A stretch of DNA of 64,000 nucleotides from Nitrospinota bacterium (GCA_046581755.1 JAYGFR010000103.1:16869-80868); one strand, 5' to 3'; positions 8,519 through 60,878 are shown, counted from the stretch's first letter. Made by a program: numbers and translations. Notes: generated from the letters alone by a model not told the origin.

Positions 8519-8880
8519 ATTCAAACCTTCTCTCCATCTTCGAGCGCGCCGTCTCCGAGCGCCGCCCGGATGGACTCCACCACGCCCTCGATATTTTTCA
8601 TCAAATCCCCGTTCCAGAAGCGCACCACCCTAATCCCTCTCCCGCCAGCGCGCGGCTTCGCTCCGCGTCGTATTCGGCCTGATCGCTCCCGGCGTGCCCG
8701 CCTCCGTCAAGCTCCACCGCCAGCCGCGCCTCGTGGCAATAAAAATCCAGGATGAACGGCCACGCCGGATGCTGACGGCAGAATTTCACGCCCAGCCCGC
8801 TGTCCCGGAGGACTCGCCACAGCTTCCGCTCCGCCTCGGTGGACTCTTTGCGAAGCTCCCGGGCCGGGCCTTCCTCTTTT
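8519..8880 (-). pseudogene. DUF559 endonuclease-domain gene remnant (frameshifted, no start codon)
   Basis: Two frames together read ...ESTEAERKLWRVLRDSGLGVKFCRQHPAWPFILDFYCHEARLAVELDGGGHAGSDQAEYDAERSRALAGEG / IRVVRFWNGDLMKNIEGVVESIRAALGDGALEDGEKV. A one-nucleotide frame change lies at about 8620-8630, and no start codon precedes the conserved N-terminal region. Confidence 0.6.
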
Positions 8881-8926
8881 CATCCAAGGGCGGTTTCGCC
8901 ATGGTTGATCCACCTTCCCTACTTAT

Positions 8927-9120
8927 TCCCTCACCCCAACCCTCTCCCGGAGGGAGAGGGAGTTAAAAACCTCGTGTTCGATGCCTTACTTTCAATCTGG
9001 AATTAACCAATTCCTCAAAATCTGAATCCCGATCAATCTCCAATTGCACCTCAACGACATTCGCCCTAAAGCCTTTGCCCTTAGTCCCCTCTCCCTCCGG
9101 GAGAGGGTTAGAGTGAGGGA
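8927..9120. repeat. MITE-like pair of inverted ~35-bp palindromic repeats flanking ~120 bp
   Basis: Position 8927-8962 reads tccctcaccccaaccctctcccggagggagagggag. The reverse complement of 9086-9120 is tccctcactctaaccctctcccggagggagagggg. Each copy contains the internal palindrome ccctctccc-NNN-gggagaggg. Confidence 0.5.
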
Positions 9121-9129
9121 GATTTCGAT

Positions 9130-9336
9130 CTACCCCGCCAAAATCCGCTTCGTGCTCGGAAGCGACATCACCAGCGCCGCCGCCATCGTCCACCAGCCCG
9201 CCGCCGTCCAATCGCCCCCCGCGTAGCCCGCGATCAACAACCCGATCCCCACCCCGCCCAGAAACTTTGCGAAAACGTGCGCCATCAGAAGCGGCGCCGG
9301 CAGATTTCGGAATCTTTGTATCCATGAGGAGAGCAT
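9130..9336 (-). CDS. small hypothetical membrane protein
   Basis: This 68-aa ORF has a hydrophobic Gly/Ala/Trp-rich core (FLGGVGIGLLIAGYAGGDWTAAGWWTMAAALV). There is no family-level recognition. Confidence 0.3.
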   Translation of the reverse strand: MLSSWIQRFRNLPAPLLMAHVFAKFLGGVGIGLLIAGYAGGDWTAAGWWTMAAALVMSLPSTKRILAG

Positions 9337-9530
9337 TAAGGGTTTCCTTGGGGGCGGGTCTTTTTCGTTATTCCGAGCGCTAGCGAGAAATCTTCGAGGA
9401 GGAAAGTTTGCGGGACACCGCCCCAGAAGATTCTTCCCTCCGCTCCGCTGAGTTCAGAATGACGCAATAACTTCTACCGATTTTCCAAACTGAGATACAG
9501 CCAATTTCAATCGCCTATAATCACCATTTT

Positions 9531-9794
9531 TCAAACCAAACGACCGAGAATTTTTCGAACAGGCCTTACAAAAATCGCATTGTGCAATTTACTTATCCGC
9601 CTATTCGTAATGTCAAAATGGTGTCCCGTTCGAATATCTCTCCACATTCCAGAATAATTTGGAGTCAACACAACTTCATGGGTCAAAATATTAAAAAGAG
9701 AAAAATGAACCTTGATTTCATTTTGGGACCCTGACCATTCTGAAACTATTAAGTGCCCAGTTGTTTGCCTCATAATTTTGGAATCTTCTCTCAA
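9531..9794 (-). CDS. hypothetical small protein in the AT-rich islet (possible partner of the HNH protein)
   Basis: The 80-87 aa ORF lies immediately downstream of the HNH ORF in a different frame. It has low GC, and ATG or TTG starts are both possible. Confidence 0.35.
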   Translation of the reverse strand: MREDSKIMRQTTGHLIVSEWSGSQNEIKVHFSLFNILTHEVVLTPNYSGMWRDIRTGHHFDITNRRISKLHNAIFVRPVRKILGRLV

Positions 9795-9808
9795 GATGGG
9801 GTCTTGGC

Positions 9809-10519
9809 TTACCCTGAAAAATTTATAGTCCGGTGGGTTCCATAACGCACGAACCTTCGAATTGAATCAAAATTTTCACTGAGAACAAAATCCGAACCAG
9901 CAATTTTAGCAAGGTAGTTTAAGGCTATTTTTGAGACCGCCCTTTGAATTACACGATCAACGACGTATTCCCCTTCAATTTCTATTTGCCCTGAATTACT
10001 TGGTTGTGGAAATACTTCATTTTTCTCTTTAAAAGAAATCCCTTTGCGCCACAGAAGGCGAATTAGCCGTGGGACGTCCAAATCAGGAATTAATAGAATG
10101 CCTTTTTGAAGACTAATTCCATCAGGAAGGCTTCTCGCTTCATACAACTCAGGCTCTGCCATAAACTTCCATCCAACTTGTTGAGCTTTAGCAAATCCAA
10201 CTTGTGGTATTGGGGCATATGCCAATTTCCCTTCTTCGACTTTTACTCCCAACAACAATCCAATATATTCACAGTTATCTGCCAATCTCATGACTAACCT
10301 ATTGCCAATAAAGTCTGAGACCATTGATTTAACATCTTTCAACCCATATTCACTTCTTTGCAGTCCCTCAAAACTGTCCCTAGCCAAATAGGAGTCATGG
10401 TATTTTCCGAAAAATTCATTGCATTCATCACAAACACAATGAAGAATTAAATTGTCAGGCGCGAATCTACCAAACGACTGAGGAATTACATGCTCTCGTT
10501 TTGTGAATTCTCTCGACAC
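9809..10519 (-). CDS. HNH endonuclease-domain protein with a ~190-aa uncharacterised C-terminal region
   Basis: The N-terminus reads REHVIPQSFGRFAPDNLILHCVCDECNEFFGKYH, which fits the HNH pattern EH-x-IP...N-L...C-x2-CN. Local GC is about 35-40%, against about 68% in the flanks. Confidence 0.6.
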   Translation of the reverse strand: MSREFTKREHVIPQSFGRFAPDNLILHCVCDECNEFFGKYHDSYLARDSFEGLQRSEYGLKDVKSMVSDFIGNRLVMRLADNCEYIGLLLGVKVEEGKLAYAPIPQVGFAKAQQVGWKFMAEPELYEARSLPDGISLQKGILLIPDLDVPRLIRLLWRKGISFKEKNEVFPQPSNSGQIEIEGEYVVDRVIQRAVSKIALNYLAKIAGSDFVLSENFDSIRRFVRYGTHRTINFSG

Positions 10520-10563
10520 TTCCTTCTCTTCAAGACAATAAATTCACTTCCGCGTCTCCACCC

Positions 10564-11660
<1,097 letters not shown>

Positions 11661-11664
<4 letters not shown>

Positions 11665-13004: not shown

Positions 13005-14001
13005 CTTCGGCCTCCGCGATTTCCGCCCGTTTCTCGCTGGGCGGGTCCCCGGCGGGTCCGCCGCCGCTCTCCCCGCTCTGGCCGGCGAGGAGGTAGAGGA
13101 TCCCCATCCGGCAGGCGACGCCGTACTCGACCTGTTCGAGGATGACGGAGTACGGCCCGTCGGCCACGTCGGGGGACATCTCGACGCCCCGGTTGATGGG
13201 CCCCGGATGCATGATAAGCAGATCCTTCTTCACCCCGCGCAGGCGCTTGCGGTTGATGCCGTAGGTGGCGGCGTACTCGCGCTCGCTCGGGAAGGCGGCT
13301 CCCGCTCCGCGCTCGACCTGGATGCGCAGCGCCATCAGGACATCGGCCCACTCGATGGCCTCCTCCAGCCGGGTGGTCACCCGGGCCCCGAGGCTCCCGG
13401 CCTCGGCGGGCAGCATGGTGGCGGGGCCGCAAATCATGACCTCGGCCCCCAGCTTCCGGAGGGCGGTGATGTCCGAGCGCGCCACCCGGCTCCGGGCGAT
13501 GTCGCCCACGATGGAGACGCGCAGGCCCTCGAACTCTTTTTTGTGCTCCCGGATGGTGTAGAGATCAAGAAGAGCTTGGGTGGGGTGCTCGTGTCAGCCG
13601 TCCCCGGCGTTGACGACCCCGCAGCGGAGCTCGCGGGCCAGGTAGGCGGGCGCCCCCGAGGCCGGATGACGCACGACGACCACGTCGGTGGCCATGGCCT
13701 CGATGTTCCGGGCCGTATCGCGCAGGGTCTCTCCCTTTTTCGCGGCGCTGGACGAGGCGGCGATGTTGATGACATCGGCCGAGAGGCGCTTTCCGGCGAT
13801 CTCGAACGAGGTGCGCGTGCGCGTGGAGGGCTCGAAGAACAGGTTCACCACCGTCTTCCCGCGCAGGGAGGGCACCTTTTTGATGTCCCGCTCGTTCACC
13901 TCCCGGAAGGAGTCGGTCATATCGAGGAGGAACAGAATCTCCTCGGGCGACAGATCCCGGATGGAGAGGAGATCTTTTCCTTGCAACGGTTCCGGCTTCA
14001 T
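12988..14001 (-). pseudogene. pyrB: aspartate carbamoyltransferase catalytic subunit interrupted by a single in-frame TGA (codon 136, complement of 13594-13596)
   Basis: The N-terminal ORF ends ...STRTRTSFE...VVNAGDG, then TGA, then in the same frame HEHPTQALLDLYTIREHKKEFEGLRVSIVGDIARSRVARS...HPGPINRGVE. A Thermus-type GDGRHEHPTQ sequence implies an ancestral CGA (Arg) codon. Confidence 0.85.
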
Positions 14002-14597
14002 GGGGAATCCTCCGGGGCAGAGGGATGCGGCGAATGATCCTGGGGAATATGTTTTATCGCGAAACCGGGCGAATCCCGCACGATGATGGCGTCCCGCCCG
14101 TCGCTTTCCTCGAGAAGGACCTGGACCTCCTCGTCGGGCAGGACATCCAGGTTCCGGCCCACGAAATCCGCCCGGACGGGCAGTTCGCGCCCGCCCCGAT
14201 CGACGGCCACGGCCAGCAGGACGCGCGCCGGGCGGCCGAAATTCACCAGCATGGCCAGCGCGGCCCGGACGGTCCTGCCCGTGAACAGCACATCGTCCAC
14301 GAGAACGATGTCCTTGTCCGCGCAGGAAAAGGGCAGGTCCGTCTTCCGAAGGCGGGCGCGGGCGCCGCCCGCGCGATCGAGATCGTCCCGGAAGAGGGTG
14401 ACGTCGAGGGCACCGACGGGGGGGCGGGTTCCCTCGAGGCTTTCGATGATGCCCGAGAGCCTCTCGGCCAGCGGCACGCCCCGGGTGCGGATGCCGACGA
14501 GGGCGAGTTGGCCGAAATCCCCGCTCTGCTCGATGATTTCGTGGGCCAGGCGCTTGAGCGTCCGGCGCAACTGGCCGCTGTCCAGCTCCTCACGCAT
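13998..14597 (-). CDS. pyrR: bifunctional pyrimidine operon regulator / uracil phosphoribosyltransferase PyrR
   Basis: The sequence reads [47 protein letters not shown]...[21 protein letters not shown]. Its stop overlaps the pyrB start in an ATGA arrangement. Confidence 0.9.
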
Positions 14598-14639
14598 GGG
14601 CCCCGGCCCCCAAACCCACAACCCGCCTAAAAGCCGCGC

Positions 14640-14690
14640 GGGCGAAAAAAAAACTCCATCCCTTCCGGAATGGAGGCCGATGTGCAAACC
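14640..14690 (-). promoter_or_regulatory. candidate PyrR-responsive attenuator: hairpin followed by a U9 tract in the pyrR-pyrB leader
   Basis: The minus-strand RNA reads cuccauuccggaagggauggag followed by uuuuuuuuu. The loop motif UCCGGAAGGGA resembles the PyrR binding loop, and the element sits in the leader upstream of pyrR. Confidence 0.35.
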
Positions 14691-14896
14691 GCTCAAATGC
14701 CCAATGTCGGGTGGTCATCCCGGCATCCTCCTTGGCCGACTCTCGGTCCGGCATTAAAGGTTGGAAGCCTTTTTCTTCTAATTTCTTCTTTTCTTCTTAC
14801 TTATATTTTCTTACTTACTTCGTACGGAACACGATGCCTCAACGCCCCGGACGATCCGGAATCTAACAGGCTTGCCCCCCGCGATCAAGGGGGAAG

Positions 14897-15211: not shown

Positions 15212-15225
15212 TCACCACCGCCCGT

Positions 15226-22345: not shown

Positions 22346-22506
22346 CGCCCATCCACCCGCCCCTGCTCGGGCAAGGATAATAAAAAAAAGCTAAACATAA
22401 GAAAAACAAATATATAGGTATTCAAAGCAATGGTCAACGTTTAAATGATCCGTGGAATACCTTTTTTTTATGGGGCAAAACAGGGGGGATTCGCTTCTGC
22501 GGGCCT

Positions 22507-24738: not shown

Positions 24739-26061
24739 TTAAGAGACCCTTCGGAGCCGCCGCCGATTCTTACCACTGGGGCGGAGCGCCTCTCCGCCGA
24801 GGACGACGCATACCGCTTCGAGCATCCGCCCGCCCCGCCGATGGGCACCCTCCGAGTCGGTGAACCGGAACCTCCCCTCCCTCATCCGCAGCACCGCCAC
24901 ATCCCCCCGCGCGCCGGGCCGGAGGGTTCCGATCTCGCCCTCCATCCCGAGCCAAGCCGCCGCCGTCTGGGTGCTCAGGCGCACCACCTGGCCGAGCGAA
25001 AAGCCCAGCGCCAGGAACTTGCTCATCAGGTTCGGAAAATCATAGACGGGCCCGTCGATGCAATGGGTGTGAAGATCCGTGCTCAGGTTGCCGGGCATGA
25101 GCCCCTGGGCCATCGCGGCATCGAGCGTATCGAAACTGAAACTCGCCCGCCCGTGGGCAACGTCGAGGAGGATTCCCCGGTCCCGCGCCTCCCATACCGC
25201 CCGGCGGACCCGCCCCCGCCGATCGAGGATGCCCTCGGCCCTTCCGTGAAAGGCGTGGGTGAGGACATCGCCCGGGCGGAGCTTTTTGAGGATCTTGGGC
25301 AGCGAGTCGGGCGTGTCGCCCACATGCACCATGAGAGGCACCCTCAGGGCCCTTGAGGCATCGAGGGCGGCATCGAGCGGCCTGCCCCCGCTGCGCTCGA
25401 CCACGTTCCGGCTCAGGCGGACTTTCATGCCGAGGAGAATGTCCCGGTTCCTCCCATAACACTCCACCGCGTCCTCCACCCGGAGCGCCCGCATGTCCAC
25501 GTTCTCCCCCAGCCCGTCGATGAGGAGGCCGCCCGCCGAGATGTTGAGAAACGCGCGAGTGGTCATCCGCGCCGGATCGAGGAATCCGCTCCTGAAAGTG
25601 GAGAACGTCTGGGAGCCCGCGCTGCCGGTGTCCACCGCCGCCGTCACCCCGCGCGCGAGCATGGACGCCTCGAGGTTCATCCCGTAGTGGCTCACCCCCT
25701 CGAAGAAATGACAGTGCAAATCGACGAGACCGGGCGTGACGATCCGCCCCCGCGCGTTCAGCGTGGGCCTTCCGCGCGGCTCGATGCGGGGCGCGATGCG
25801 GCGGACGCAGCCCGCGCGAATCTCCACGTCCATCGTCCCCTCGAGGTCCTGGGAGGGATCGACCACATAGCCGCCTCGAATGATCAGATCGGACACGGCA
25901 CACTCCCCCGGTTCGAATTTCCGGCTCTGGAAATCGCCACTTTGAAACCCGCCGTTTTTGTAGATCCCCACAAAGCCTACTTCGCCTCCCGGCGCCGGGC
26001 AAACCCGTCCGCCCGCATTGACAGTGCGAAGCTCCCCGGAGGAACATGGCTCCCAATCCAT
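24739..26061 (-). CDS. amidohydrolase-family metal-dependent hydrolase
   Basis: The sequence contains VSDLIIRGGYVVDP...GLVDLHCHFFEG...LMVHVGDTPD...LLDVAHGRASFSF. The start is uncertain: the ORF track extends to 26229, and MDWEP at 26061 is one candidate. Confidence 0.65.
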   Translation of the reverse strand: MDWEPCSSGELRTVNAGGRVCPAPGGEVGFVGIYKNGGFQSGDFQSRKFEPGECAVSDLIIRGGYVVDPSQDLEGTMDVEIRAGCVRRIAPRIEPRGRPTLNARGRIVTPGLVDLHCHFFEGVSHYGMNLEASMLARGVTAAVDTGSAGSQTFSTFRSGFLDPARMTTRAFLNISAGGLLIDGLGENVDMRALRVEDAVECYGRNRDILLGMKVRLSRNVVERSGGRPLDAALDASRALRVPLMVHVGDTPDSLPKILKKLRPGDVLTHAFHGRAEGILDRRGRVRRAVWEARDRGILLDVAHGRASFSFDTLDAAMAQGLMPGNLSTDLHTHCIDGPVYDFPNLMSKFLALGFSLGQVVRLSTQTAAAWLGMEGEIGTLRPGARGDVAVLRMREGRFRFTDSEGAHRRGGRMLEAVCVVLGGEALRPSGKNRRRLRRVS

Positions 26062-33429: not shown

Positions 33430-34214
33430 ATGCAGCGGTTTCTCAATTTATTGTCCGGCCTCTCCGATATTATTCTCCCGCGCTCGTGCCCCACATGCGG
33501 CGGCGCGCTACCCTTCGGGGGCGGCAGAGCCATATGCGAAACTTGCCTGGAGGCGCTCGAGCGGACCTTGCCCCCCTGGTGCCCCGTATGCGGAAAACCG
33601 TTCCGCTCGGAATTCACCCTCTCCTATTCCCCGGACCACCTTTGCGCCGAGTGCCGCGAATGGCCGCCGGATTTCGATGGGGCCCGCGCCCTGGGCCCCT
33701 ACGATGGCGCCCTTCGTAATCTGGTTCATCTGATCAAATACCACGGCTACACCTCCCTTGCCGCCGAGCTGGGGGTAGAACTCAGCCAGCGGGCCCGGCA
33801 GGAATTTCCCGGTGCCGCTGATGCGGGAGACGGATTGATAACGTTCGTTCCCATCGCCCGGAAACCTGGAAAGAGCGCGGCTTCGATCAGGCCCGGCTTC
33901 TCGCCCAGAGCACCGCCGGGCGCCTGGGAGTGGCATTCGCGCCCACTCTCGAGAGGAGAGCCCCCTCGGCCCCCCAGACACGCCTGACGGCCAAGCGGAG
34001 GAGAAAAATCCTGCGCGGCGTTTTCTCCTCTCTCAACCCGCCCGCCTCGGAGGGGAAACGGGTCATTTTGATCGACGATGTTCTGACAACCGGCTCGACG
34101 GCCTCGGCCTGCGCCCGGGAACTCAAAATAGCGGGTGCATTATCCGTAAGTGTCTTGACCATTTGTCTTACTGTGATAAAAGGAATTCAGAATTTAATAT
34201 TTTATTTATGCTGA
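33430..34214 (+). pseudogene. comF: ComF-family (phosphoribosyltransferase-domain competence) gene with a single-nucleotide frameshift near 33870
   Basis: Frame 1 gives a zinc-ribbon N-terminus (ILPRSCPTCGG...WCPVCGKPF...CAEC) up to VPIARKPGK. Shifted by one base, the next frame continues ERGFDQARLLAQ...VILIDDVLTTGSTASACAREL. The joined sequence VPIARKPGKERGFDQ aligns 15/15 with the canonical VPLHPRRLRERGFNQ. Confidence 0.7.
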
Positions 34215-34470
34215 GAGTTATCTTAACTGCAAGAATTTAAAATGGTTAAGTCATGCAATGCAAATAGTTAAAAAAGGTAAATATATTTAAATAAAAAAAA
34301 TACTTGAAATAATTATGGGTAAAGCGTATTTTTGAATTTATAATTTAGGGAGATTTGAGGATCTCAGGGTTTATTTAACCCCAAACAGTCCGTAATATGG
34401 TGAAGCTAGGAAATGGAGCGAGTGGCCATAGGTTCTACTACTGGACTATGCGAAACGGAAGTGGAGAACG
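34215..34470. promoter_or_regulatory. AT-rich (~30% GC) 250-bp intergenic region with candidate promoters upstream of the cI-like regulator
   Basis: The composition contrasts sharply with the ~68% GC flanks. One candidate is TTGAAA-17nt-TATTTT. A second element, TTGAAT...TATAAT, has wrong -35/-10 spacing. Confidence 0.3.
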
Positions 34471-35229
34471 ATGAAATTACGCCTCGAAAAACCCAGAAGA
34501 GAAGCGATCGGAGCCCGGCTCAGGGAGATTCGGCTCTTCAATAAACTCGAGCAAACCGAGCTTGCCGATCGTGCGGGCCTTTCTCAGGCCATCATCAGCC
34601 AGTACGAAAAAGGTCTCACCGAAATCAGTCTCTCGTTCATCAAGTTCCTGGCCGATAACTTCAACATCTCGGGCGATTGGCTCATTTTCGGCACCGGCGA
34701 GTCGCCCCACGAGCAATCCCAAAAAGAAATCGAGCTCCGCCTCCCGAAAAGCCTCGGCGGCGCCTCCGTGAAAGGAAGAAAAAAGTCGGGATTTTTCGGC
34801 ATCCCCATCGTGGACCCCAAATCAGCCGCCAGGCCCGGCAAGGTCCAGAATGAGCAGATCCAGGATTGGGAAATCGTCCGGCTTCAAGAGGCCACGGGCC
34901 GCAACAACCTCGTCGCCCTGGAGGTGAGGGGTGACTGGGTGAAAAACATGGACGCCCCCTTCCGGGCGGGCGGACGCATCGTCATCGATCGCGATGATAA
35001 GAAAGTGCGCCACGACGCCTTTTACGCCGTGAACAAGGCCATCAAGAAAAAAGCCCCGCGCGACGCCAGCATCACCGGAATCCGCCGCCTCAGCATGAGC
35101 GGCTCCCGGCTCTGGTTCGTCGAGGATCGCCCCGGCAAGGAATTCGAATTCATGGACCTCAAGGCCAGCGACCGGATCGAAAACATCATCATCGGCCGGG
35201 TCATCTGGGTCTGGCAAAAGATGATCTAG
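34471..35229 (+). CDS. XRE-family HTH + LexA/cI-like (S24) C-terminal domain regulator, predicted non-cleaving
   Basis: The N-terminal HTH reads LEQTELADRAGLSQAIISQYEKG. The C-terminus has an S24-like fold, but GDW (ALEVRGDWVKNMD) stands where the catalytic GDSM is expected. Confidence 0.6.
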   Translation: MKLRLEKPRREAIGARLREIRLFNKLEQTELADRAGLSQAIISQYEKGLTEISLSFIKFLADNFNISGDWLIFGTGESPHEQSQKEIELRLPKSLGGASVKGRKKSGFFGIPIVDPKSAARPGKVQNEQIQDWEIVRLQEATGRNNLVALEVRGDWVKNMDAPFRAGGRIVIDRDDKKVRHDAFYAVNKAIKKKAPRDASITGIRRLSMSGSRLWFVEDRPGKEFEFMDLKASDRIENIIIGRVIWVWQKMI

Positions 35230-37795: not shown

Positions 37796-38770
37796 CTACA
37801 CGTTCAACACCACCTTCCCCAAAAATTTTCCGCTCAGGACCAGTTCGTGCGAATCGTTGGCCTCATCGAGCGGAAGCTCGCGGCCGATATGAGGGTGGAT
37901 GTCCCCCCGCTCGAGGAGGGGCCTCAGATGAAGGAGGGCCTTGGGGATATGCGGGGCCATGTTGGCCGAGGAGATTCCCATCATCCGCGCGTCCCGGCTC
38001 ATGGCCGGGCGGAGCGAGATCGTCACCTCCGAGCCCTTCCCCGTGCCCCCGCCGACGATGACGATGCGCCCGTTCAGGGCGAGGAGTTCGAGGTCGCCGG
38101 CCAGATTGTCGCTGGCGGCGGTTTCGACCACCACGTCCGCCCCCCGCCCGGCGGTCACCTCCTTCACCCGCTCGGGAACGTTGCTCTCCCGGTAGTTGAT
38201 CACCTCCTCGGCGCCCGCCTCCCGGCAAAAATCGGCCTTTTCCTCCGAACTCACCGTCGCCAGCACGCGGCAGCCCATGTGCCGGGCCAGCTGAATCGCC
38301 AGATGGCCGACGCCACCCGCGCCGCCCTGGACGAGCACCGTCTCGCCAAGCCCCGCTTCGCCCTTGATCACCAGAGCGTTCCAGGCCGTGAGGAGGGGAA
38401 TCGGCAGGCAGGCTCCCTCTTCGGAGGTCAGGCTGTCCGGAAGGATTCCGGTCGCCGCCGCCGAGAGGACGCCCTTTTCGGCGTACCCCCCGGTCAGGGA
38501 GCGGCCCCACACCCGGTCCCCGGCCTTGATGGCGTCCACGCCCTCGCCCACGGTCTCCACCTCGCCCGAAACGTCTGTACCGCAAACCATGGGGAGCTGC
38601 ATCATCTTCGAGCGTGGATGATTGCCCGAGCGAATCGAAATTTCGAGCGGGTTGACCCCCGCCGCGCGAACGCGCACCACCACCTGCCCCGGCCCCGCCT
38701 GGGGGGCAGACAGGTCCTCCACCACCATGGGGGTATCGAGTCCGAGCTTATGAACGCTGACCGCTTTCAT
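37796..38770 (-). CDS. zinc-binding NADPH:quinone oxidoreductase (MDR family)
   Basis: The sequence reads MKAVSVHKLGLDTPMVVEDLSAPQAGPGQVVVRVRAAGVNPLEISIRSG and has a Rossmann motif (VLVQGGAGGVGHLAIQLA). Confidence 0.85.
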   Translation of the reverse strand: MKAVSVHKLGLDTPMVVEDLSAPQAGPGQVVVRVRAAGVNPLEISIRSGNHPRSKMMQLPMVCGTDVSGEVETVGEGVDAIKAGDRVWGRSLTGGYAEKGVLSAAATGILPDSLTSEEGACLPIPLLTAWNALVIKGEAGLGETVLVQGGAGGVGHLAIQLARHMGCRVLATVSSEEKADFCREAGAEEVINYRESNVPERVKEVTAGRGADVVVETAASDNLAGDLELLALNGRIVIVGGGTGKGSEVTISLRPAMSRDARMMGISSANMAPHIPKALLHLRPLLERGDIHPHIGRELPLDEANDSHELVLSGKFLGKVVLNV

Positions 38771-39741
38771 GGCGTGAGCACCACCTTTCCGATAAATTTT
38801 CCACTTAACACGACATCGTGCGCCTTGTTGGCCGATTCCATCGGCAGCGCCCGGTCGATGTGGATCTTGAGCGTCCCCTCGCGGAGAACCGGCGTGAAGC
38901 GCCGGATCAGTTCGCCCATCTTGGGGATGAGGTTCACCACCGCGAGGCCGAGCACCCGCGCGTCCTTGGTCATCACCGAGGGCACCCGAAAATCCGTCAT
39001 GGGTCCTATTCCGGTTCCGGTGCCGATGACGATGACGCGCCCATCGATGCAGATGGCATCGAGATCCTTGTCGAAATTATCGCAAGCGGCGAGTTCGACG
39101 ATGACATCCACCCCGCGCCCGCCGGTGAGTTCCATGCACCGCTCGGCGAAATTCTCCTCGCGGTAGTTGATCGTCTCATCGGCGCCGAGGCTCCGGCAAT
39201 AATCCGCCTTCTCTCCGGAACTCACCGTCGCGAACACCCGGCAGCCCATCCGCTTGGCGATCTGAATCGCGGCGCTGCCGACGCCCCCGGCCCCGCCCTG
39301 GACGAGAACCGTCTCGCCGGGCCCTGCCTCAGCCTTGATCACCAGGGCGTTCCAGGCCGTGTAGAAGGGAACCGTGATGCCCGCGCCCTCCTCGTAGCTG
39401 TAAGCCTCGGGAAGCTCGGCGGCCCCATCCGCCGGGAGGCGCACCAGTTCCGCGTAGCCGCCCCCCATCGCCCGCCCGTAGACGCGCTGGCCCACCTCGA
39501 AGCCCTCCACACCCTCGCCGATGGCCACCACCTCGCCCGCCGCCTCGGCGCCCGGGACGTAGGGGGGCGTCACCATCTTCGCATAGGGGTGCTTGTTCGC
39601 CCGGATGGCGATGTCCACCGGGTTGACACCCATCGCTCCCGCCCGGATCAGAAGCTCTCCCGGCTGGGCTGCGGCGTCCTCGATTTCCTCTTCCTGCATC
39701 GGAACGGATAGATCAAACTTGTGTACGCGAACCGCTTTCAT
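38767..39741 (-). CDS. zinc-binding NADPH:quinone oxidoreductase (MDR family), tandem paralog
   Basis: The sequence reads MKAVRVHKFDLSVPMQEEEIEDAAAQPGELLIRAGAMGVNPVDIAIRAN...VLVQGGAGGVGSAAIQIA. Its stop overlaps the downstream paralog by 4 nt. Confidence 0.85.
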   Translation of the reverse strand: MKAVRVHKFDLSVPMQEEEIEDAAAQPGELLIRAGAMGVNPVDIAIRANKHPYAKMVTPPYVPGAEAAGEVVAIGEGVEGFEVGQRVYGRAMGGGYAELVRLPADGAAELPEAYSYEEGAGITVPFYTAWNALVIKAEAGPGETVLVQGGAGGVGSAAIQIAKRMGCRVFATVSSGEKADYCRSLGADETINYREENFAERCMELTGGRGVDVIVELAACDNFDKDLDAICIDGRVIVIGTGTGIGPMTDFRVPSVMTKDARVLGLAVVNLIPKMGELIRRFTPVLREGTLKIHIDRALPMESANKAHDVVLSGKFIGKVVLTP

Positions 39742-42405: not shown

Positions 42406-42482
42406 GGACCGCACCCGATTTTGCGGGACCTGACTTTTGCAGGCCGTTTTTTTTCAAGGCCCGTGTTTTTTAGGAGACTCCG

Positions 42483-43034
42483 GTGAACGGCGAGCGGAAC
42501 GGAGGCACCATTCTCATGAGGGAGCGAGAGCTCGAACTGGCTCTCCGCCGGATGGCCTCTGAGATCGCCGAAATTTGCGCGGGCGATCCGCATCTGGCCC
42601 TCATCGGGGTGCGCACGCGCGGAGAACCCCTCGCCCAGCGGCTGGCCCGCTTGGTCGAGGAGATGGAGGAGATCGAGCCGCCCGTGGGCACGCTCGACAT
42701 CGGAATCCACCGGGACGACGTGGACCACCCCGGCGGGGGAAGAATTTTCGGCCCCACCGAGATCGGCTTTGACCTCGCCGAGCGGCAGATCGTCCTGGTG
42801 GACGATGTATTCTTCACCGGGCGCACGGTCCGCGCCGCCCTCGATGCGCTGGCCGAAATCGGGCGGCCGCGCCGGGTATGGCTCGCTGTCCTGATCGACC
42901 GGGGGCACCGCGAGCTTCCCTTCCGGCCCGATTTCACCGGAAAAAACGTACCCACCGCCACCGCCGAGCGAGTCAACGTCCGCCTCCGGGAGGTGGACGG
43001 CGAGGACGGCGTATGGCTGGTCAGGCCCGCCTGA
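42483..43034 (+). CDS. pyrR: PyrR-family protein (second paralog; regulator / uracil phosphoribosyltransferase)
   Basis: The sequence reads LELALRRMASEIAEICAGDPHLALIGVRTRGEPLAQRL...[21 protein letters not shown]. Confidence 0.8.
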   Translation: MNGERNGGTILMRERELELALRRMASEIAEICAGDPHLALIGVRTRGEPLAQRLARLVEEMEEIEPPVGTLDIGIHRDDVDHPGGGRIFGPTEIGFDLAERQIVLVDDVFFTGRTVRAALDALAEIGRPRRVWLAVLIDRGHRELPFRPDFTGKNVPTATAERVNVRLREVDGEDGVWLVRPA

Positions 43035-43078: not shown

Positions 43079-43477
43079 ATGTTCAACAAGGTGCACCACA
43101 TCGGCATCGCGGTGAAGGACATGGACGGGGCCATCGCCCTCTACAAGGGCGCGGGGGCGAAGCTGCTCGGACGCGAGTCCTCCAAGGACGGCAACGTGGA
43201 CCTCGCCATGCTCGATCTGGGCGGGGACCTGATCGAACCCCTCTCCCCCATTCGGGGAGAATCGGAAATCTCGAAATTCATCGAGCGCCACGAGGAGGGC
43301 GTCCACCACGTGGCCTATGAGGTGGACGACATCAAGGCCGAGATGGCCCGCCTGAAGGCGGAAGGGTTCAAGCTGATCGACGAGGTTCCCCGGCCCGGAT
43401 TCATGGGCCACATCATCGCCTTCATCGAACCCCAAAGCACGATGGGCACCCTCTGGGAACTGGTCGAGAAGGAATAG
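43079..43477 (+). CDS. mce: methylmalonyl-CoA epimerase (VOC family)
   Basis: The sequence reads MFNKVHHIGIAVKDMDGAIALYKGAGAKLL...GVHHVAYEVDDIKAEMARLKAEGFKLIDEVPRPG. Confidence 0.85.
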   Translation: MFNKVHHIGIAVKDMDGAIALYKGAGAKLLGRESSKDGNVDLAMLDLGGDLIEPLSPIRGESEISKFIERHEEGVHHVAYEVDDIKAEMARLKAEGFKLIDEVPRPGFMGHIIAFIEPQSTMGTLWELVEKE

Positions 43478-43506
43478 CCGCCGCGCCCGGGCCGGGATTC
43501 CGCCGC

Positions 43507-44331
43507 TCACCTCCGGGGCGGCTTGGAGGGCATCTCAACGATCCGGACTATGTGATCGCCGGAGACAGGGCGCCCGCCCTGCCTGCGCTGGATCCCCCAG
43601 CCCTTGAGGCGAAAGGTCCGGCCCGGAGCCGTTCGGGGCGGAATCTCGACGTGGGCGGCGCCCCGGACGGTGAAGACGCGCACGGTTCCCCCGGCGATCA
43701 GGCGGAACCGGGGGACGCCCACCTCGCTGTGCACGTCGAGGCCGCGCCGCTCCAAGGCGGGATGGCGCGCCGAGGTCACCGTGAGAACCAGGTCTCCCGG
43801 CCTGCCCCCCGCGCTGCCAGGAGCCCCCTCCATGGGAACCCGGACCTTCTCCCCGTCCTCGAGGCCGGAGGGAAGGAGGGCGTTCACGAGCGCCTCCTCG
43901 AATATCTCGCCCGCCCCGCCGCACACCTTGCACGATCCCACCCCGGACGCCTCGGACAACCCGGGCGACCCGCCGCAATCCGGGCAGGCGAAGGGCCGCT
44001 GTATCCGGACGCCGACCTCACCGCCCGCAGCCGCCTCGAGGAAATCCACCATGATGTCGAAGTGAAGATCGCGCCCCCGCGCCGACAGGTCGTCCGAGGC
44101 GTCCAGGGTGGGGGGTGCATCCTCTCCCGCCCCCGAGATCAGCGCCTGGTAGGCCTCGCCGATCTCCTTGAAGCGCGCCTCCATTTCCAGCTGGCCGGCG
44201 TGGCGATCCGGATGAAATTCGAAGGCCAGCCGCCGGTAGGCGCGGTGAATATCCTCCTGCGCGGCGGTCCCCGAGAGGCCCAGAATCGCAAGTGCGCTCT
44301 TTTTCGAAATCGGAGGCGGTTTGGGAGACAA
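43507..44331 (-). CDS. DnaJ-domain protein with CR-type zinc finger (CbpA/DnaJ-like)
   Basis: A TTG start is proposed 4 nt after a GAAGGAGGGAG ribosome-binding site. The J domain reads ILGLSGTAAQEDIHRAYRRLAFEFHPDR. A CxxCxG zinc-finger segment (CPDCGGSPG...CKVCGGAG) and a DnaJ-type C-terminal region follow. The 543-aa ORF-track version includes a spurious N-terminus that overlaps the EamA gene. Confidence 0.7.
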   Translation of the reverse strand: MSPKPPPISKKSALAILGLSGTAAQEDIHRAYRRLAFEFHPDRHAGQLEMEARFKEIGEAYQALISGAGEDAPPTLDASDDLSARGRDLHFDIMVDFLEAAAGGEVGVRIQRPFACPDCGGSPGLSEASGVGSCKVCGGAGEIFEEALVNALLPSGLEDGEKVRVPMEGAPGSAGGRPGDLVLTVTSARHPALERRGLDVHSEVGVPRFRLIAGGTVRVFTVRGAAHVEIPPRTAPGRTFRLKGWGIQRRQGGRPVSGDHIVRIVEMPSKPPRR

Positions 44332-44432
44332 GGGGCTCCCTCCTTCGGGCGGAGGCGCGAAATGCGCCCGCCCCCCTATTTTTTCACCGATTCGCCAGGA
44401 GTCAAGGGGGGGGGCGGCGGTCGGGCCGACCC

Positions 44433-48313: not shown

Positions 48314-49288
48314 TCACACCTTCAAAACGATTTTTCCCGCCACCTTGCCCGTCATCAGAACCTCGTGGGCGCGCGCCGCCTCGGCGAGGGGGATCTCCTC
48401 GCCGACGAGGGCGCGGACCTTTCCCTGCTCGAGGAGGTAGTTCACCTGACGGATCATGTCGGGGAACACGGCGTCCGTATTAAAGAGGCTCATCCCGCGC
48501 ACGTCGATGTCCTTCGAGTAGAAGGGCGGGTAGGTGACCGAACCCACCATGCTCTTTCCAGTCCCGGCGCCCAGAAGCACCATCGTCCCGCCCTTTTTGA
48601 GCGCCCGGCAGCTTTCGTCGAAATTCTCGGCCGAGACCATCTCGATGACCACGTCCACCCCCACCCCGCCACTCTCGGCGACGCAGCGGTCGGCGAAATC
48701 TTCCTCGCGGTAGTTCACCACCACGTCCGCGCCCAGCGACTCGGCAACGGCGGCCTTTTCCTTTGAACTGACCGTCGTGATGACGCGGGCGCCGGCCGCC
48801 TTGGCGATCTGAATTGCCATCGACCCCACGCCCCCCGCGCCGGCGTGGACGAGTATTGTCTGGCCGGGCTGAATCCCAGCCTTGACGACAACGGCGTTAA
48901 AAGCCGTATAGAGCACCACCGGGAACGAGGCGCACTCCTCGAACGAGAGGTTCGAGGGAATCCGGGCGGTCCGCAGGCCGTTCAGCGCGGTCTTTTCCGC
49001 ATAGCTTCCGGTCATGGCCGCCCCGAACACGCGGTCCCCCGCCCCGAACCCCTCAACACCCTCGCCCACCTCGATCACCTCGCCAGCCGCGTCGATTCCG
49101 GGCGTCCAGGGAAGTTTGAGGGATTTCGAGAGCGGATGAGCGCCCGAGCGGAAGGTGGTGTCCACCGGATTCACCCCGGCCGCCCGCACCTGGATAAGCA
49201 GCTGACCCGGACCGGCCGAAGGCTCCTCCGCCTCCTCGAATTTCATCACTTCGGGTCCGCCGAATTCGTGAACCTGAATCGCTTTCAT
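48314..49288 (-). CDS. zinc-binding NADPH:quinone oxidoreductase (MDR family), third paralog
   Basis: The sequence reads MKAIQVHEFGGPEVMKFEEAEEPSAGPGQLLIQVRAAGVNPVDTTFRSG...ILVHAGAGGVGSMAIQIA. Confidence 0.85.
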   Translation of the reverse strand: MKAIQVHEFGGPEVMKFEEAEEPSAGPGQLLIQVRAAGVNPVDTTFRSGAHPLSKSLKLPWTPGIDAAGEVIEVGEGVEGFGAGDRVFGAAMTGSYAEKTALNGLRTARIPSNLSFEECASFPVVLYTAFNAVVVKAGIQPGQTILVHAGAGGVGSMAIQIAKAAGARVITTVSSKEKAAVAESLGADVVVNYREEDFADRCVAESGGVGVDVVIEMVSAENFDESCRALKKGGTMVLLGAGTGKSMVGSVTYPPFYSKDIDVRGMSLFNTDAVFPDMIRQVNYLLEQGKVRALVGEEIPLAEAARAHEVLMTGKVAGKIVLKV

Positions 49289-53361: not shown

Positions 53362-53382
53362 GCGCACATCAGGAGACCGATC

Positions 53383-54048
53383 ATGACCCCCAAGCCACCT
53401 CCCCTCCGGCGCGTCCAGCACATCGGCATCAAGGTCCACGATCTGGACGAGGCCGAGGCCTTCTACCGGGACGTCTTGGGCTAGCGCGTGTCCGACCGCT
53501 ACGAGCCCGGCGACAATCCGCACAGCCTCTGGGGCATCTGCTTCATGCGGAGCGCGGAGCTTCATCACGAACTCTCCCTCCTCCACTACGTCCCCGAGTC
53601 GGGGCCGTTCGAGAAAATCGATGCCCTGCGCACCCCCGGCGTCGGCCTCCACCACATCGCCTTCGATGCCGGGTCCAAGGAAGCCTTCGAGGCCTGGGAG
53701 GAATACATCCGCTTCCTCGGAATCGAGATCTTCCACGGTCCCCGGGTCCACAGCCCGACCCATCCCGAGGGGGACGGGACCCTGGGCGAGAACCGGGCGT
53801 TCTACTTTCACGACCCTTCCGGGAACGGCATCGAAATTTTCACCGATCTGGCCCCGATGGACGAGGACACGAACCGCGTCAACGAGGCCTGGTTCCGCGA
53901 CCGCCTCGAACGGGACGGCTACGAACGCGGCTCCGCCGATCCGCCGCCCGCCGCCCGCCTGGAAACCCGGCGTATCGAGCATGGCGGGCGCGCACGAAAA
54001 ATTCGGGAACAAAAAATCCTGGTAAATTTCATGGAGACTTTCGAATGA
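53383..54048 (+). pseudogene. VOC (glyoxalase / extradiol dioxygenase) family gene interrupted by an in-frame TAG at 53482-53484
   Basis: An AGGAGA ribosome-binding site precedes ATG 53383. The N-terminal segment MTPKPPPLRRVQHIGIKVHDLDEAEAFYRDVLG is followed by TAG, then in the same frame RVSDRYEPGDNPHSLWGICF...GLHHIAFDAG...NGIEIFTD. The N-terminal part carries the first metal-ligand His of the VOC fold. Confidence 0.7.
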
Positions 54049-55001
54049 CCCACCGCATTGTGGCGGTCGATCCGAGGTGGAAAAACCCCGGCCGCCAGAA
54101 ATTCCTGACCGACCATCTGCCGGATGGATACGAACTGATCATCCCCGAATCCTTCGAGCCTGAAGACCTCCGCCGGGAGCTGGAATCGACCGCCGCCCTC
54201 GTCACCGGCCTTGGCGATATCACCGAGGAGATGATGCGCGCCGCGCCGAACCTCCGCGTGGTCGGCAAGGCGGGAACCGGGGTGGACTCCATCGATGTCG
54301 CCGCGGCGACGGCCATGAAGATTCCGGTGGCGCACACCCCAGGCTGGATGCGCGCGACGCCGGTGGCCGAGCACGCCCTCACCCTTATGCTCATGCTCGC
54401 TCGGAAACCCTGGCTCTGGCGAGGAAAGGAGCGTCCACCCCTGCACACGCAGCTATCGGAGTGCTCGGCCGGGATCGTGGGGCTGGGGAACATCGGCCAG
54501 CGCATCGCCGCCCGCTGCGCCGGGTTTGACATGGAGGTGCTCGCCTATACGAGGACGAAAGGAAAGTTCCAGCCCGAGGGATTTTCGGTCGAGGAGACCG
54601 GCTCGCTCGAAGAACTCCTGGGCCGGGCAGACTACGTCGTCCTCTCCCTCCCCCTCAACGAGGAGACGCGCGGAATCATCGGCGCGGGCGAACTGGGCCT
54701 GATGAAGCCCACGGCGTTCCTCATCAACGTCTCGCGGGGTAGCCACATCGTGACGGACGCCCTCGTCGCCGCTCTCCAAAACGGAGAGATCGCCGGCGCC
54801 GGCCTCGACGTGATCGAGCCCGATCCGCTTCCCGGGGACCATCCCATTCTCGAACTGGATAACGTTGCCATATCGCCCCATTGCGCCGCCCAGACCCAAA
54901 GCACACAGGATCAGAGCTACCGCCTCCTCGCCGAGAGCATCCGCCTCGCGGTCGAGGGCGAGCGCGTCGAAGCCCTCGTCAACCCGGAAATATACGGCTG
55001 A
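54045..55001 (+). CDS. D-isomer-specific 2-hydroxyacid dehydrogenase (PGDH-like)
   Basis: The sequence reads MTHRIVAVDPRW...GIVGLGNIGQRIAARCAGFDMEVLAY...LINVSRGSHIVTDALVAALQNGEIAGAGLDV. Its ATG overlaps the stop of the VOC gene. Confidence 0.85.
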   Translation: MTHRIVAVDPRWKNPGRQKFLTDHLPDGYELIIPESFEPEDLRRELESTAALVTGLGDITEEMMRAAPNLRVVGKAGTGVDSIDVAAATAMKIPVAHTPGWMRATPVAEHALTLMLMLARKPWLWRGKERPPLHTQLSECSAGIVGLGNIGQRIAARCAGFDMEVLAYTRTKGKFQPEGFSVEETGSLEELLGRADYVVLSLPLNEETRGIIGAGELGLMKPTAFLINVSRGSHIVTDALVAALQNGEIAGAGLDVIEPDPLPGDHPILELDNVAISPHCAAQTQSTQDQSYRLLAESIRLAVEGERVEALVNPEIYG

Positions 55002-55164
55002 CCGGCCGCCGCGCGGCGGAGGGCGTCATCTTCCTCGTCAATCCCCGGGCGGGGGGCGGGCCGCCCGACCGGACGCCCCCATTCGCCCGTGCTATAATTT
55101 TCCCACGGGAAAATTTGGCCACCCACCCGTGCCGCCGAGGCACACCCAAGGGAAGGATTTCCTG

Positions 55165-56298: not shown

Positions 56299-56302
56299 GG
56301 CG

Positions 56303-58228: not shown

Positions 58229-58235
58229 AACCGAA

Positions 58236-59414
58236 ATGAGCCAGCGAAAAATTTCAGCCGTTTTCTACCGGGGCGGCACCAGCCGCGCCATCTTTTTCAA
58301 CGCCAAGGACATCACCGAGGACCCGGAGACGCGGACCGCGATATTCCTCCGCGCCATGGGAAGTCCGGACCCCAACGGCCGCCAGCTCGACGGCCTCGGC
58401 GGCGGCATCTCCTCCCTCAGCAAGGCCGCCGTCATCGGCCCCTCCACCCGCCCGGACGCCGACGTGGATTTCACCTTCGCCCAGGTGAGCGTGGATACCC
58501 CCTTCGTGGATTACGGGGGCAACTGCGGAAACATGTCGAGCGCGGTGGGGCTCTTCGCGGTCGAGGAAGGGCTCGTCCCCCCGCCGCCGGACGGGGAGGC
58601 CACCGTCCGCATCCACAACACGAACACCAACAAGATCGTCATCTCCAAATTCCGGGTCGAGGGCGGCATTCCCGCGGTCGAGGGGGACTACGCGCTTCCG
58701 GGCGTGGCCGGAACTGGCTCGCGCATCACGCTCGAATTCACCGATCCCGGAGGCGCCTCGACGGGAAAGCTTCTCCCCACCGGGAGGCGGGTCGATGAAT
58801 TCGATATCGAGGGAATCGGAAGGATCGAGGCCAGCCTCGTCGATGCGGCCACCCCCGCCGTTTTCGTCCGGGCCAAGGACATCGGCCTTTTGGGGACCGA
58901 ATCCCCCGGGGCCATCGACGCCCAGCGGACGATTATGGTGAATCTGGAGCAGATCCGGGCCGAGGCCACTGTCCGGATGGGTATATCGCCCGACACCCGG
59001 GCGGCTTCGGAGTCCTCCCCCCTGGTTCCGAAAATGGCCATAGTCTCGCCCCCGGCGGAATACTTCGACCTCACGGGGGCGCCCGTTCCCGCCGACTCGT
59101 TCGACATCCTGAGCCGGATGCTCTCGATGGGAAAAACCCACCGCGCCTATCCGCTGACGGGGGCGATGTGCCTCGCCGTGGCCGCCCGCATACCGGGCAC
59201 AATTGCGCACGAGGCCGCGCGTCCCGGCGGAGGGGACCTTCGTCTCGGGCACTCGTCCGGGGTCCAACCCATCGGGGCCGTCGTGACCCAGGACCCGGAA
59301 GGGCCCCGGGCCGAGAAGGTCATCGTCTACCGCACCGCCCGCCGCCTGATGGAAGGCTCGGTCCTCATTCCCGCCAGCGTATTTGAGGCTGAGGCGCAAA
59401 CCGCCCCGGCCTAG
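58236..59414 (+). CDS. prpF: PrpF / AcnD-accessory family isomerase (2-methylaconitate cis-trans isomerase-like)
   Basis: The N-terminus MSQRKISAVFYRGGTSRAIFFNAKDI is the characteristic PrpF / DUF453 start. The protein is 392 aa, with the GGNCGNMSSAVG segment. Confidence 0.85.
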   Translation: MSQRKISAVFYRGGTSRAIFFNAKDITEDPETRTAIFLRAMGSPDPNGRQLDGLGGGISSLSKAAVIGPSTRPDADVDFTFAQVSVDTPFVDYGGNCGNMSSAVGLFAVEEGLVPPPPDGEATVRIHNTNTNKIVISKFRVEGGIPAVEGDYALPGVAGTGSRITLEFTDPGGASTGKLLPTGRRVDEFDIEGIGRIEASLVDAATPAVFVRAKDIGLLGTESPGAIDAQRTIMVNLEQIRAEATVRMGISPDTRAASESSPLVPKMAIVSPPAEYFDLTGAPVPADSFDILSRMLSMGKTHRAYPLTGAMCLAVAARIPGTIAHEAARPGGGDLRLGHSSGVQPIGAVVTQDPEGPRAEKVIVYRTARRLMEGSVLIPASVFEAEAQTAPA

Positions 59415-59484
59415 ATTGGCTTCCAGGCGCGCGCCTCGGGCGGAGCGCCCCGGGCGGCCTCCGCCGGCGAAAGAGACCCAAAAA

Positions 59485-60333
59485 GTGGGCAACCAGCCCT
59501 CGATCCAGGAAATTCAGGGATTCTACGATGTGGTGTCCCCCCTCTACCGGGATCTGTGGGCCGGCCACATCCACCATGGCTACTACCCCTCCGGCCGCGA
59601 AACAAAAGAAGAGGCCACCGAGGGCCTCATCCAATTTCTCGCCGACGCCTCCTCCCTGAAACCCGGCGCCAAGGTTCTCGACGTCGGATGCGGAATCGGC
59701 GGAACGTCGATCTGGCTGAGCCAAAATTTCGGCTGCAAGGTGACCGGAATCACCATCAGCCCGGCGCAAAGGAAAATGGCGGAAGAGGCGGCCTCCAGCC
59801 TCGACCGGAAACCCGAATTTCTGCTCATGGACGCCAACCGCATGACCCTGACCGGAACCTTCGACGCGGTTTGGACCGTCGAGGTGCTCGCCCACCTGGG
59901 CGATCACCTGAGTTTTTTCCGAAAGTGCCACGCGCTTTTGAACCCCGGCGGAAGGATTTGCATCGCCGCCTGGCTCAAGGCGGACAATCTGACAGCGCGG
60001 GAGGAGGCGGAGATTATCCGGCCCATCGAGGAGGGAATGTTCTGCGCGCTATCGACCTCCGAAAAATACCTGAAGCTCCTCGATGAATCCCGTTTCAAGC
60101 TGGTGCGCTTCGAGGACATCAGCCCCCGGGTGAAGCAAACATGGGATATCGGCCTGAAAATTATAAGGGATAAGGCCGTGTGGGCGTTCGCCGCCCGCCA
60201 CGGGATGGAATTCCTGAGACACCTCCGGGGATTTCGAAGGATGAAGCGGGGTTTCGAGGAAAAAAAATTCGTCTACGGGATTCTGATCGCCGAAAAAATC
60301 CAGCCGCCGCTCGATCTAATTTCCTCTGATTGA
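59485..60333 (+). CDS. class I SAM-dependent methyltransferase (tocopherol-MT / natural-product-MT-like HHGYY type)
   Basis: A GTG start is proposed. The sequence reads IQEIQGFYDVVSPLYRDLWAGHIHHGYY...VLDVGCGIGGTSIWLSQ...LLNPGGRICIAAW. Confidence 0.75.
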   Translation: MGNQPSIQEIQGFYDVVSPLYRDLWAGHIHHGYYPSGRETKEEATEGLIQFLADASSLKPGAKVLDVGCGIGGTSIWLSQNFGCKVTGITISPAQRKMAEEAASSLDRKPEFLLMDANRMTLTGTFDAVWTVEVLAHLGDHLSFFRKCHALLNPGGRICIAAWLKADNLTAREEAEIIRPIEEGMFCALSTSEKYLKLLDESRFKLVRFEDISPRVKQTWDIGLKIIRDKAVWAFAARHGMEFLRHLRGFRRMKRGFEEKKFVYGILIAEKIQPPLDLISSD

Positions 60334-60463
60334 AAACCCTGTTCATGGCGCCCGGGCGGCCCGGCGCCCGACCGTCACCAGCCAAACGCCCGCTATCGTC
60401 AGCGCCCCTCCCGCGAGGAGGCCCCCGCTAAATGGCGCGCCCTTCGGTGAATGGTTTTTCCGC

Positions 60464-60878
60464 TCAACTGGGCCCGCCGCCGATACGCACCCGCTCGCAC
60501 AACTCGATGCGCACGTTGCCCGGCCCGCGGATAAATGCGATCGCCCGGCCCCCGATGCCGGTCCGCTGGGGGGGCGTCCAGGACCTCCGCCCCGCGCGAG
60601 GCCAGCCAGGCCACGGCGGCATCCACGTCCTCGACGGCGAAGCCCACATGGTCCAGCCCCTCGACGAGCCGGGGGGCGCGCGCATCGGGCGCATCTCCCT
60701 CGCGCATCCCCCTGATCCGCAGTGTCCCGCCGCCGAGCCGGAAAATCGCGTAGGCCGCCCCTTTATGGTCGTCGATGTACTCCACGGCCTCCATCCCGAA
60801 TACGCACTCGAAATACCCGGTCAGCGCGCGGACGTCGCTAACCAAAAAATGGACGTGATCGAAGCCGAACTCCATCGC
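60464..60878 (-). pseudogene. VOC-family (glyoxalase-like) gene with a frameshift inside a G7 (C7 on the coding strand) homopolymer at 60566-60572
   Basis: Frame A reads MEFGFDHVHFLVSDVRAL...LDHVGFAVEDVDAAVAWLASRGAEVLDAPP, then shifts. Frame B continues QRTGIGGRAIAFIRGPGNVRIELCE, the canonical VOC C-terminus. Adding one C to the homopolymer restores DAPPQRTG. Confidence 0.6.

Follow-up and report, generated by a model that had tools for sequence, protein, structure and literature searches.

In bacteria, relaxed selection allows nonsense and frameshift mutations to turn genes into pseudogenes (Liu et al. 2004, cited in PMC11078800; PMC2916853). Disrupted genes typically account for 1-5% of the genes of a prokaryote (PMC11078800), and young pseudogenes are expected to persist only briefly (PMC2916853, Kuo & Ochman 2010). 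Frameshifts and premature stops are also produced by long-read errors (PMC12007338). Here, we analyzed a 64-kb stretch of DNA (referred to as the window) from a metagenome-assembled genome (MAG) of an uncultured marine Nitrospinota bacterium. An earlier note on the window had described five disrupted genes at what it called an unusual density and had attributed them either to an unpolished assembly or to a lineage undergoing gene decay. Comparison with contigs of the same species from other samples shows that the lesions in the DUF559, VOC1, comF and VOC2 genes are reproduced in independent assemblies and that those in pyrB and in a gene for an HNH endonuclease are private to the window assembly. 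We suggest that most of the broken genes are probably authentic loss-of-function alleles of a wild population. The six genes are:

8519..8902, minus strand: DUF559 pseudogene (Vsr-like endonuclease fold) with two -1 frameshifts; ATG at 8900-8902
9531-10543, minus strand: HNH endonuclease gene, about 38% GC, with a -1 frameshift at about 9834; product of 244 aa versus 329-337 aa
12988..14001, minus strand: pyrB (aspartate carbamoyltransferase) with TGA at 13594-13596, codon 135 of 337
33430..34214, plus strand: comF (double zinc ribbon and phosphoribosyltransferase domain) with a frameshift allele at 33860-33866; product of 185 aa
53383..54048, plus strand: VOC1 pseudogene (glyoxalase/dioxygenase superfamily) with TAG at 53482-53484 and two copies of GCCCGCC at 53946-53959
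60464..60878, minus strand: VOC2 (glyoxalase superfamily) with a +1 frameshift; G7 at 60568-60574 versus G6 in the intact gene

As in known bacterial pseudogenes, these genes are disrupted in comparison with intact homologues, some of them carry several lesions (DUF559, VOC1), the broken alleles display raised divergence or nonsynonymous change, and the genes affected are accessory, selfish or paralogous. They depart from the usual pattern in that comF and VOC2 have not yet lost their polymorphism, several null alleles of independent origin being present across ocean metagenomes, and in that disrupted genes make up about 10% of the genes rather than 1-5%. The unusual density claimed in the earlier note thus stands as a moderately high one resting on small numbers, i.e. 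about 6 disrupted genes of about 60 (Poisson P of about 0.01 for at least 6 at an expectation of 3%).

Phase-variable contingency loci in Neisseria and Haemophilus are driven by simple sequence repeats, and in the window repeat-length polymorphism likewise shifts the reading frame (G6/G7 in VOC2, C6/C7 in the comF gene of contig L179, and one to four copies of a heptamer in VOC1). However, the repeats in question are very short, the heptamer lies in a VOC1 gene already killed by the TAG, and neither reversible switching nor a role at the cell surface or in restriction-modification is evident. The pyrB TGA replaces a conspecific TGC (Cys) codon as in selenocysteine (UGA) recoding, but it lacks a hairpin resembling a selenocysteine insertion sequence (SECIS) and lies at a position that appears neither conserved nor catalytic; PyrB is not known to be a selenoprotein. 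Finally, the single-base length changes in the VOC2 G7 run and in intergenic A/T/G runs of 8-10 nt resemble long-read or 454 homopolymer errors (PMC12007338), whereas the recurrence of lesions in the assemblies of other strains, the multi-nucleotide nature of the comF lesion and the two lesions that are substitutions do not. The phenomenon is of a known kind, represented by new instances.

Disrupted genes and comparison set

Disruptions were checked by three-frame translation and gene identities by Pfam searches with the repaired genes. All five disruptions described earlier are present in the sequence. Three further lesions are present: DUF559 has a second frameshift, VOC1 a tandem duplication of 7 nt and the HNH gene, which is the sixth disrupted gene, a -1 frameshift. 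The repaired proteins match OTCace_N and OTCace (PyrB), DZR_2 and Pribosyltran (ComF), Glyoxalase at 1-121 of 121 (VOC1 and VOC2 each) and PF04480 at profile positions 6-108 of 109 with E=4e-32 (DUF559); the HNH gene matches HNH_5. The disruption of DUF559 was judged against the Pfam profile and that of the other five genes against intact close homologues, i.e. L094/L095 (pyrB), L180 (comF), P0001/P0082 (VOC1), L097/P0095 (VOC2) and P0085/P0086 (HNH).

About 25 conspecific contigs were retrieved by exact-protein look-up of intact window genes. They originate from ENA, JGI and Logan assemblies of samples other than that of the window, are 99.5-99.9% identical to the window at the nucleotide level, and together cover 60.3 kb of it, with a depth of at least 2 over 40.1 kb; their names (k141_, k127_) suggest that the assemblies are short-read. 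The nearest species-representative genomes in a PyrB scan are two Nitrospinota-type MAGs, ODZ_NOB7a with a PyrB identity of 91% and an "uncultured Nitrospinae bacterium" with 89%; a PyrB scan of a metagenome collection, dominated by generic patterns, yielded no contig of the species. The nearest representative loci, L001 and L002, are about 75% identical to the window in nucleotide sequence and syntenic with it at 10.5-24 kb; at this distance, these loci were used for the residue at the pyrB TGA and for synteny, not for judging errors.

The gene content of about 60 is based on a codon-usage gene call over the whole window. G+C content is 55-69% per 2-kb step and above 60% in most steps, and tRNA and Rfam scans of the whole window gave no match. 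Among 54 window genes, TAG ends 20 and TGA ends 25, which rules out codon reassignment.

Lesions shared with independent assemblies

The comF sequence at 33860-33866 is GGAAACC in the window and GGGATCGC in the intact allele of L180. The lesion is a complex of three substitutions and a 1-nt deletion and not a homopolymer indel. The earlier note was correct about a 1-nt change of frame but had placed it at about 33870 within ggaaag, and neither this site nor the simple type holds. A shift in the C3 run at 33848-33850 was considered as well and is rejected by the sequence of the intact allele. The allele of the window recurs exactly in L181 (SRR27277814), in L182 (SRR22804946) and in P0065 from a second NCBI MAG, each of which has further amino-acid changes of its own. 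Intact comF is found in L180 (261 aa, on the same contig as L084), P0056, P0057 and P0061. L179 is of the intact type at 33860-33866 but has an independent +1 shift (C6 to C7) at 33970-33975, and in P0059 the frameshift allele is compensated by a second shift, located about 25 codons downstream, which returns the phosphoribosyltransferase domain to its frame. In total, comF has at least three derived alleles, and besides the two frameshifts its polymorphism comprises four nonsynonymous and two synonymous changes. In the adjoining gene, 7 contigs encode the same XdhC-like protein of 382 aa.

In the ComF protein of P0059, the conserved ERGFDQ segment is swapped for out-of-frame residues. Between comF and an HTH_3/HTH_19 gene lies an AT-rich intergenic stretch of about 300 nt (34160-34470) in a genome otherwise of about 64% GC.

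VOC1 contains the in-frame TAG described earlier. This codon is identical in the five contigs with DNA available (L088-L092), the gene calls of a sixth contig display the same split into 33 and 186 aa, and records from 15 contigs contain the 33-aa open reading frame (ORF) that the TAG closes. The intact relatives P0001 and P0082 (211 aa) have Tyr at this codon and one copy of the heptamer. The window has a second VOC1 lesion that had been missed, a tandem duplication of GCCCGCC that shifts the last approximately 25 residues by +1. Rebuilding VOC1 with one, two, three and four heptamers yields the exact C-termini of P0082, P0066 (window), P0078 and P0070, respectively. With three copies, as in P0078 (one ENA contig; a relative of window 53488-55001), VOC1 is fused in frame to the downstream 2-hydroxyacid dehydrogenase to give 506 aa, and with four, as in P0070, it is back in frame. 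All variants with at least two copies begin after the TAG and, therefore, the heptamer drifts inside an already dead gene; this start also speaks against a functional ON state.

In VOC2, the shift lies in a G7 run as the earlier note had claimed; however, the run is located at 60568-60574 and not at 60566-60572, and the frame is restored by G6 rather than by the addition of a G, i.e. G8. Intact G6 alleles are present in L097 and P0095. The frameshifted C-terminus of the window is found in P0096 (a 45-kb ENA contig, ERZ27247699) and in P0098, both with amino-acid differences of their own. P0097 is without the central part of the protein and ends in GGGPS and may represent an internal-deletion allele. 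The window contains at least three VOC paralogues, the third of which (43079-43477) is intact.

For DUF559, a single lost G and a missing start codon had been described. The gene is disrupted, but by two -1 shifts, and it does have a start: the ATG at 8900-8902 seemed missing because it is in another frame, on account of the second shift. The first shift maps close to a C3 run (8635-8637), which is G3 in the coding orientation, and the second probably sits in the T4 run at 8877-8880. The window and the independent contig L094 differ by zero indels in this gene and, therefore, share both shifts. They differ by 6 substitutions in 481 nt (1.25%), compared to 0.33% for L094 as a whole.

Two inverted copies of a GC-rich palindrome resembling repetitive extragenic palindromic (REP) elements (8926-8962 and 9090-9125; core ctctccc-gga-gggagag) flank a small ORF adjoining the DUF559 remnant. 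The REP-like stretch, read from 9125 to 8926, is matched by L001 14171-14352 at 73%.

Given that identical lesions are present in independent assemblies of other strains and samples, a sequencing artefact is refuted for four of the five sites first described, and gene decay, the other of the two explanations put forward in the earlier note, is supported for the same four. The equation of homopolymer indels with sequencing error does not hold: no homopolymer underlies the comF lesion, and in VOC2 the allele with the longer G-run is real. Among the indels, that in VOC2 has a homopolymer location (G7), those in DUF559 (runs of 3-4 nt) and in HNH (C3/C4) have one weakly, and that in comF has none. 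The lesions in DUF559 and VOC1 are fixed in all conspecific contigs seen, and comF and VOC2 are polymorphic with several independent null alleles. Signs of relaxed constraint, all based on small counts, are the two shifts and the 1.25% divergence in DUF559, the TAG plus heptamer in VOC1 and the 4:2 ratio in comF. The data support that there is no genome-wide erosion of core genes, with lesions located in accessory, paralogous or selfish genes, two of which are polymorphic.

We suggest that the affected genes are dispensable, i.e. that DUF559 and HNH are selfish or defence-type nucleases, VOC1 and VOC2 paralogues and comF a competence gene, and that relaxed selection would let ordinary mutations in them persist. 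Replication slippage at short repeats (G6/G7, C6/C7 and one to four copies of GCCCGCC) may supply part of these mutations. A stronger version of this scenario is that comF and the two VOC paralogues are being inactivated repeatedly and independently in a wild deep-ocean population, by an ongoing and possibly adaptive loss or by on/off switching. It builds on at least three derived alleles per gene, including the compensated double frameshift in comF and the fusion-capable heptamer in VOC1, and it sees null alleles that coexist with intact copies across ocean samples as something other than neutral debris. We regard this version as unlikely.

Private lesions in pyrB and the HNH gene

The in-frame TGA in pyrB is present as described earlier, and it is the sole lesion in a core gene and private to the window assembly. 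Codon 135 is TGC (Cys) in L094, L095 and the related-genus locus L001; pyrB is intact in L094, L095 and 9 full-length members of its cluster; and truncation at this codon is found in 0 of 11 sequence variants in the 90% cluster. The 135-aa PyrB fragment of the window is without a record in the exact look-up, and the pyrR-pyrB-pyrC-carA cluster of the window is otherwise intact. The residue at codon 135 is variable among orthologues (C, M, W, A, Q). In the 103 nt from 13567 to 13669 there are four private third-position GC to AT changes, three of them synonymous and the fourth creating the TGA, a density far above the private rate of 0.18%. This tract may mark a divergent haplotype, and from the sequence a TGA amid private synonymous changes looks like natural divergence. 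In total, the TGA stems either from an error in the consensus or from a deleterious allele that is rare and recent; as a rough estimate the two are nearly balanced, leaning to error because pyrB is a core gene. The annotator of the NCBI MAG appears to have treated pyrB as a pseudogene, because the run of accessions between the HNH gene and the ComF fragment has no number for pyrB. If the stop is real, the strain would be a pyrimidine auxotroph or depend on read-through.

Selenocysteine at the TGA was considered and is rejected, as no SECIS-like structure is present: in the 77 nt from the TGA, minimum free energy folding gives no gain of a SECIS-like hairpin (-16.3 kcal/mol in the window versus -20.7 kcal/mol for the Cys allele). 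In addition, no tRNA-Sec is encoded within the 64-kb window, and comparison with orthologues suggests that codon 135 is not a conserved catalytic Cys position.

The window has two paralogues of PyrR-type phosphoribosyltransferases, one (13998-14597) heading pyrR-pyrB-pyrC-carA and the other (42483-43034) beside the intact VOC gene.

In the HNH gene, L094 has one base more than the window at 9834. Intact HNH versions of 329-337 aa make up at least 5 further members of the cluster and occur on at least 7 contigs; with full-length proteins in other assemblies, the -1 shift at about 9834 is therefore private to the window assembly. The deletion falls on a C/T polymorphic site, with CCA in P0086 and CTA in L094, and corresponds to a C4 run contracted relative to the P0086 allele. 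The same two explanations as for the pyrB stop apply to it, namely consensus error or a rare deleterious allele of recent origin.

The HNH gene is contained in a low-GC island (9480-10545; about 38% versus about 64% overall) between carA and the DUF559 remnant. By its sequence the island looks like a lineage-specific insertion, because the corresponding interval is about 1430 nt long in the window and only about 700 nt in L001.

Alternative explanations, public records and neighbouring genes

The error level of the window assembly can be estimated from 71 window-private substitutions in 40.1 kb, defined as sites at which at least two contigs agree against the window. Those in coding sequence split into 29 synonymous and 32 nonsynonymous changes, and 52% affect the third codon position; for singletons of the other contigs, the corresponding numbers are 63 synonymous and 51 nonsynonymous. 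Random errors are expected to give roughly 1 synonymous to 3 nonsynonymous changes and, therefore, most of the private substitutions are natural. Among the covered homopolymer runs of at least 6 nt, 111 of 115 have the same length in the window and in the other contigs, and homopolymer-purifying substitutions are not biased towards the window (3 cases versus 9).

Several observations weigh against the reading of the lesions as natural decay. Private indel events are about 3-fold more frequent in the window (about 7 in about 58 kb) than in the other contigs (about 5 in about 135 kb). Three of them are in intergenic runs at which 2-4 contigs agree against the window (A8 versus A7 at 22382-22389, T8 versus T9 at 42447-42454 and G9 versus G10 at 44406-44414), and at 34406-34453 a private TC to CT swap, a 1-nt and a 2-nt deletion are clustered against three mutually identical contigs. 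The TGA affects a core biosynthetic gene, pyrB, and is absent from all other sequences compared, independent coverage of DUF559 is by one contig only, and a MAG contig can be a strain mosaic, so that the lesions need not all occur in one cell. Some consensus error in the window assembly is plausible and, at a low level, is the leading rival explanation of the pyrB and HNH lesions. Extending it to all lesions, as homopolymer-type errors of unpolished long-read or 454 data, would fit the VOC2 lesion in its G7 run, the contracted C4 run in HNH, the intergenic runs, the cluster at 34406-34453, the lack of the pyrB and HNH lesions in any other assembly, and the known capacity of long-read errors to create frameshifts and stops (PMC12007338). 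We consider this very unlikely given that, for four of the five genes first described, independent assemblies from different strains and samples carry exactly the same lesions, that the comF lesion is outside a homopolymer, that the covered runs are nearly all equal in length without a window bias in homopolymer-filling substitutions, and that the private synonymous to nonsynonymous ratio is natural. If only the pyrB TGA, the HNH shift and the private intergenic indels are consensus errors and the other lesions are real, the excess of private indels is accounted for, as are a stop in a core gene that lies in an otherwise intact cluster and is intact in L094, L095 and 9 full-length cluster members, and a deletion exactly on a C/T polymorphic site. 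Set against this are the position of the TGA among three private synonymous third-position changes, a private substitution spectrum of which little can be error, and the variable PyrB residue, at which a leaky stop could be tolerated; we see this restricted version as a serious possibility, just short of an even chance.

Alternatively, the lesions may each be real but the contig may mix strains, so that no one cell is this broken. In SRR27277814 contigs, the comF frameshift allele of the window occurs with VOC2 G6 (L181, L097), on an ERZ27247699 contig the other comF frameshift occurs with VOC2 G7 (L179, P0096), and private differences are clustered at 13567-13669, 25195-25936 and 43216-44138. 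However, the window is one uninterrupted piece (64 kb) of a 104.5-kb contig, with no breakpoints demonstrated, and it is closest throughout to contigs of two samples (0.06-0.19% difference); a mosaic of this kind appears improbable to us. In a different scenario, the pyrB TGA is recoded as selenocysteine or read through, and the G-run and the heptamer act as phase-variable switches. A stop codon TGA followed by C is a leaky context in E. coli. The pyrB TGA is followed by C and coincides exactly with an orthologous Cys (TGC) in the classic Cys/Sec relationship, and G6/G7 and heptamers of one to four copies vary in the population, three heptamers fusing VOC1 to the dehydrogenase. Yet the window gains no SECIS-like hairpin and folds less stably than the Cys allele, the PyrB position is not a conserved catalytic Cys, TGA and TAG serve as normal stops, the repeat varies in a dead gene with the TAG upstream in every VOC1 variant of at least two copies, and the comF alleles include lesions outside repeats. 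Recoding or switching is very unlikely on these grounds, and we favor natural decay of dispensable genes for most of the lesions.

Just downstream of the most error-like spot of the window (34406-34453) lies an HTH/repressor-like gene (34471-35229).

These data have implications for the public records, as four ORFs of broken genes in the window are identical to proteins of one NCBI MAG, encoded on a contig of 104,525 nt:

HNH ORF of the window, 244 aa: MFP6868747.1 (NCBI MAG "Nitrospinota bacterium")
ComF fragment, 185 aa: MFP6868766.1, "double zinc ribbon domain-containing protein", with the private change G81D
VOC1 fragment, 186 aa: MFP6868785.1 (NCBI MAG "Nitrospinota bacterium")
Frameshifted VOC2, 203 aa: MFP6868791.1 (NCBI MAG "Nitrospinota bacterium")

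The annotation is corrected accordingly: the "double zinc ribbon domain-containing protein" and the two "VOC family protein" records are fragments of broken genes. Exact look-ups of the window CarB, PyrR, a 309-aa hydrolase and a 159-aa VOC2 ORF returned no record. The value of the analysis is chiefly in quality control and annotation. Frameshifts and stops that cluster in a MAG are not necessarily artefacts of sequencing, and recurrence of the exact allele in independent public assemblies can settle artefact versus biology without raw reads. Moreover, a competence gene and VOC paralogues have loss-of-function alleles that segregate in a relative of the marine nitrite oxidisers, a modest addition to the record of gene loss among free-living bacteria of the ocean.

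Elsewhere in the window there are three paralogues of zinc-type alcohol dehydrogenase/quinone oxidoreductase of 324 aa each (37796-39741 and 48314-49288), two of which are arranged in tandem with a 4-nt overlap.

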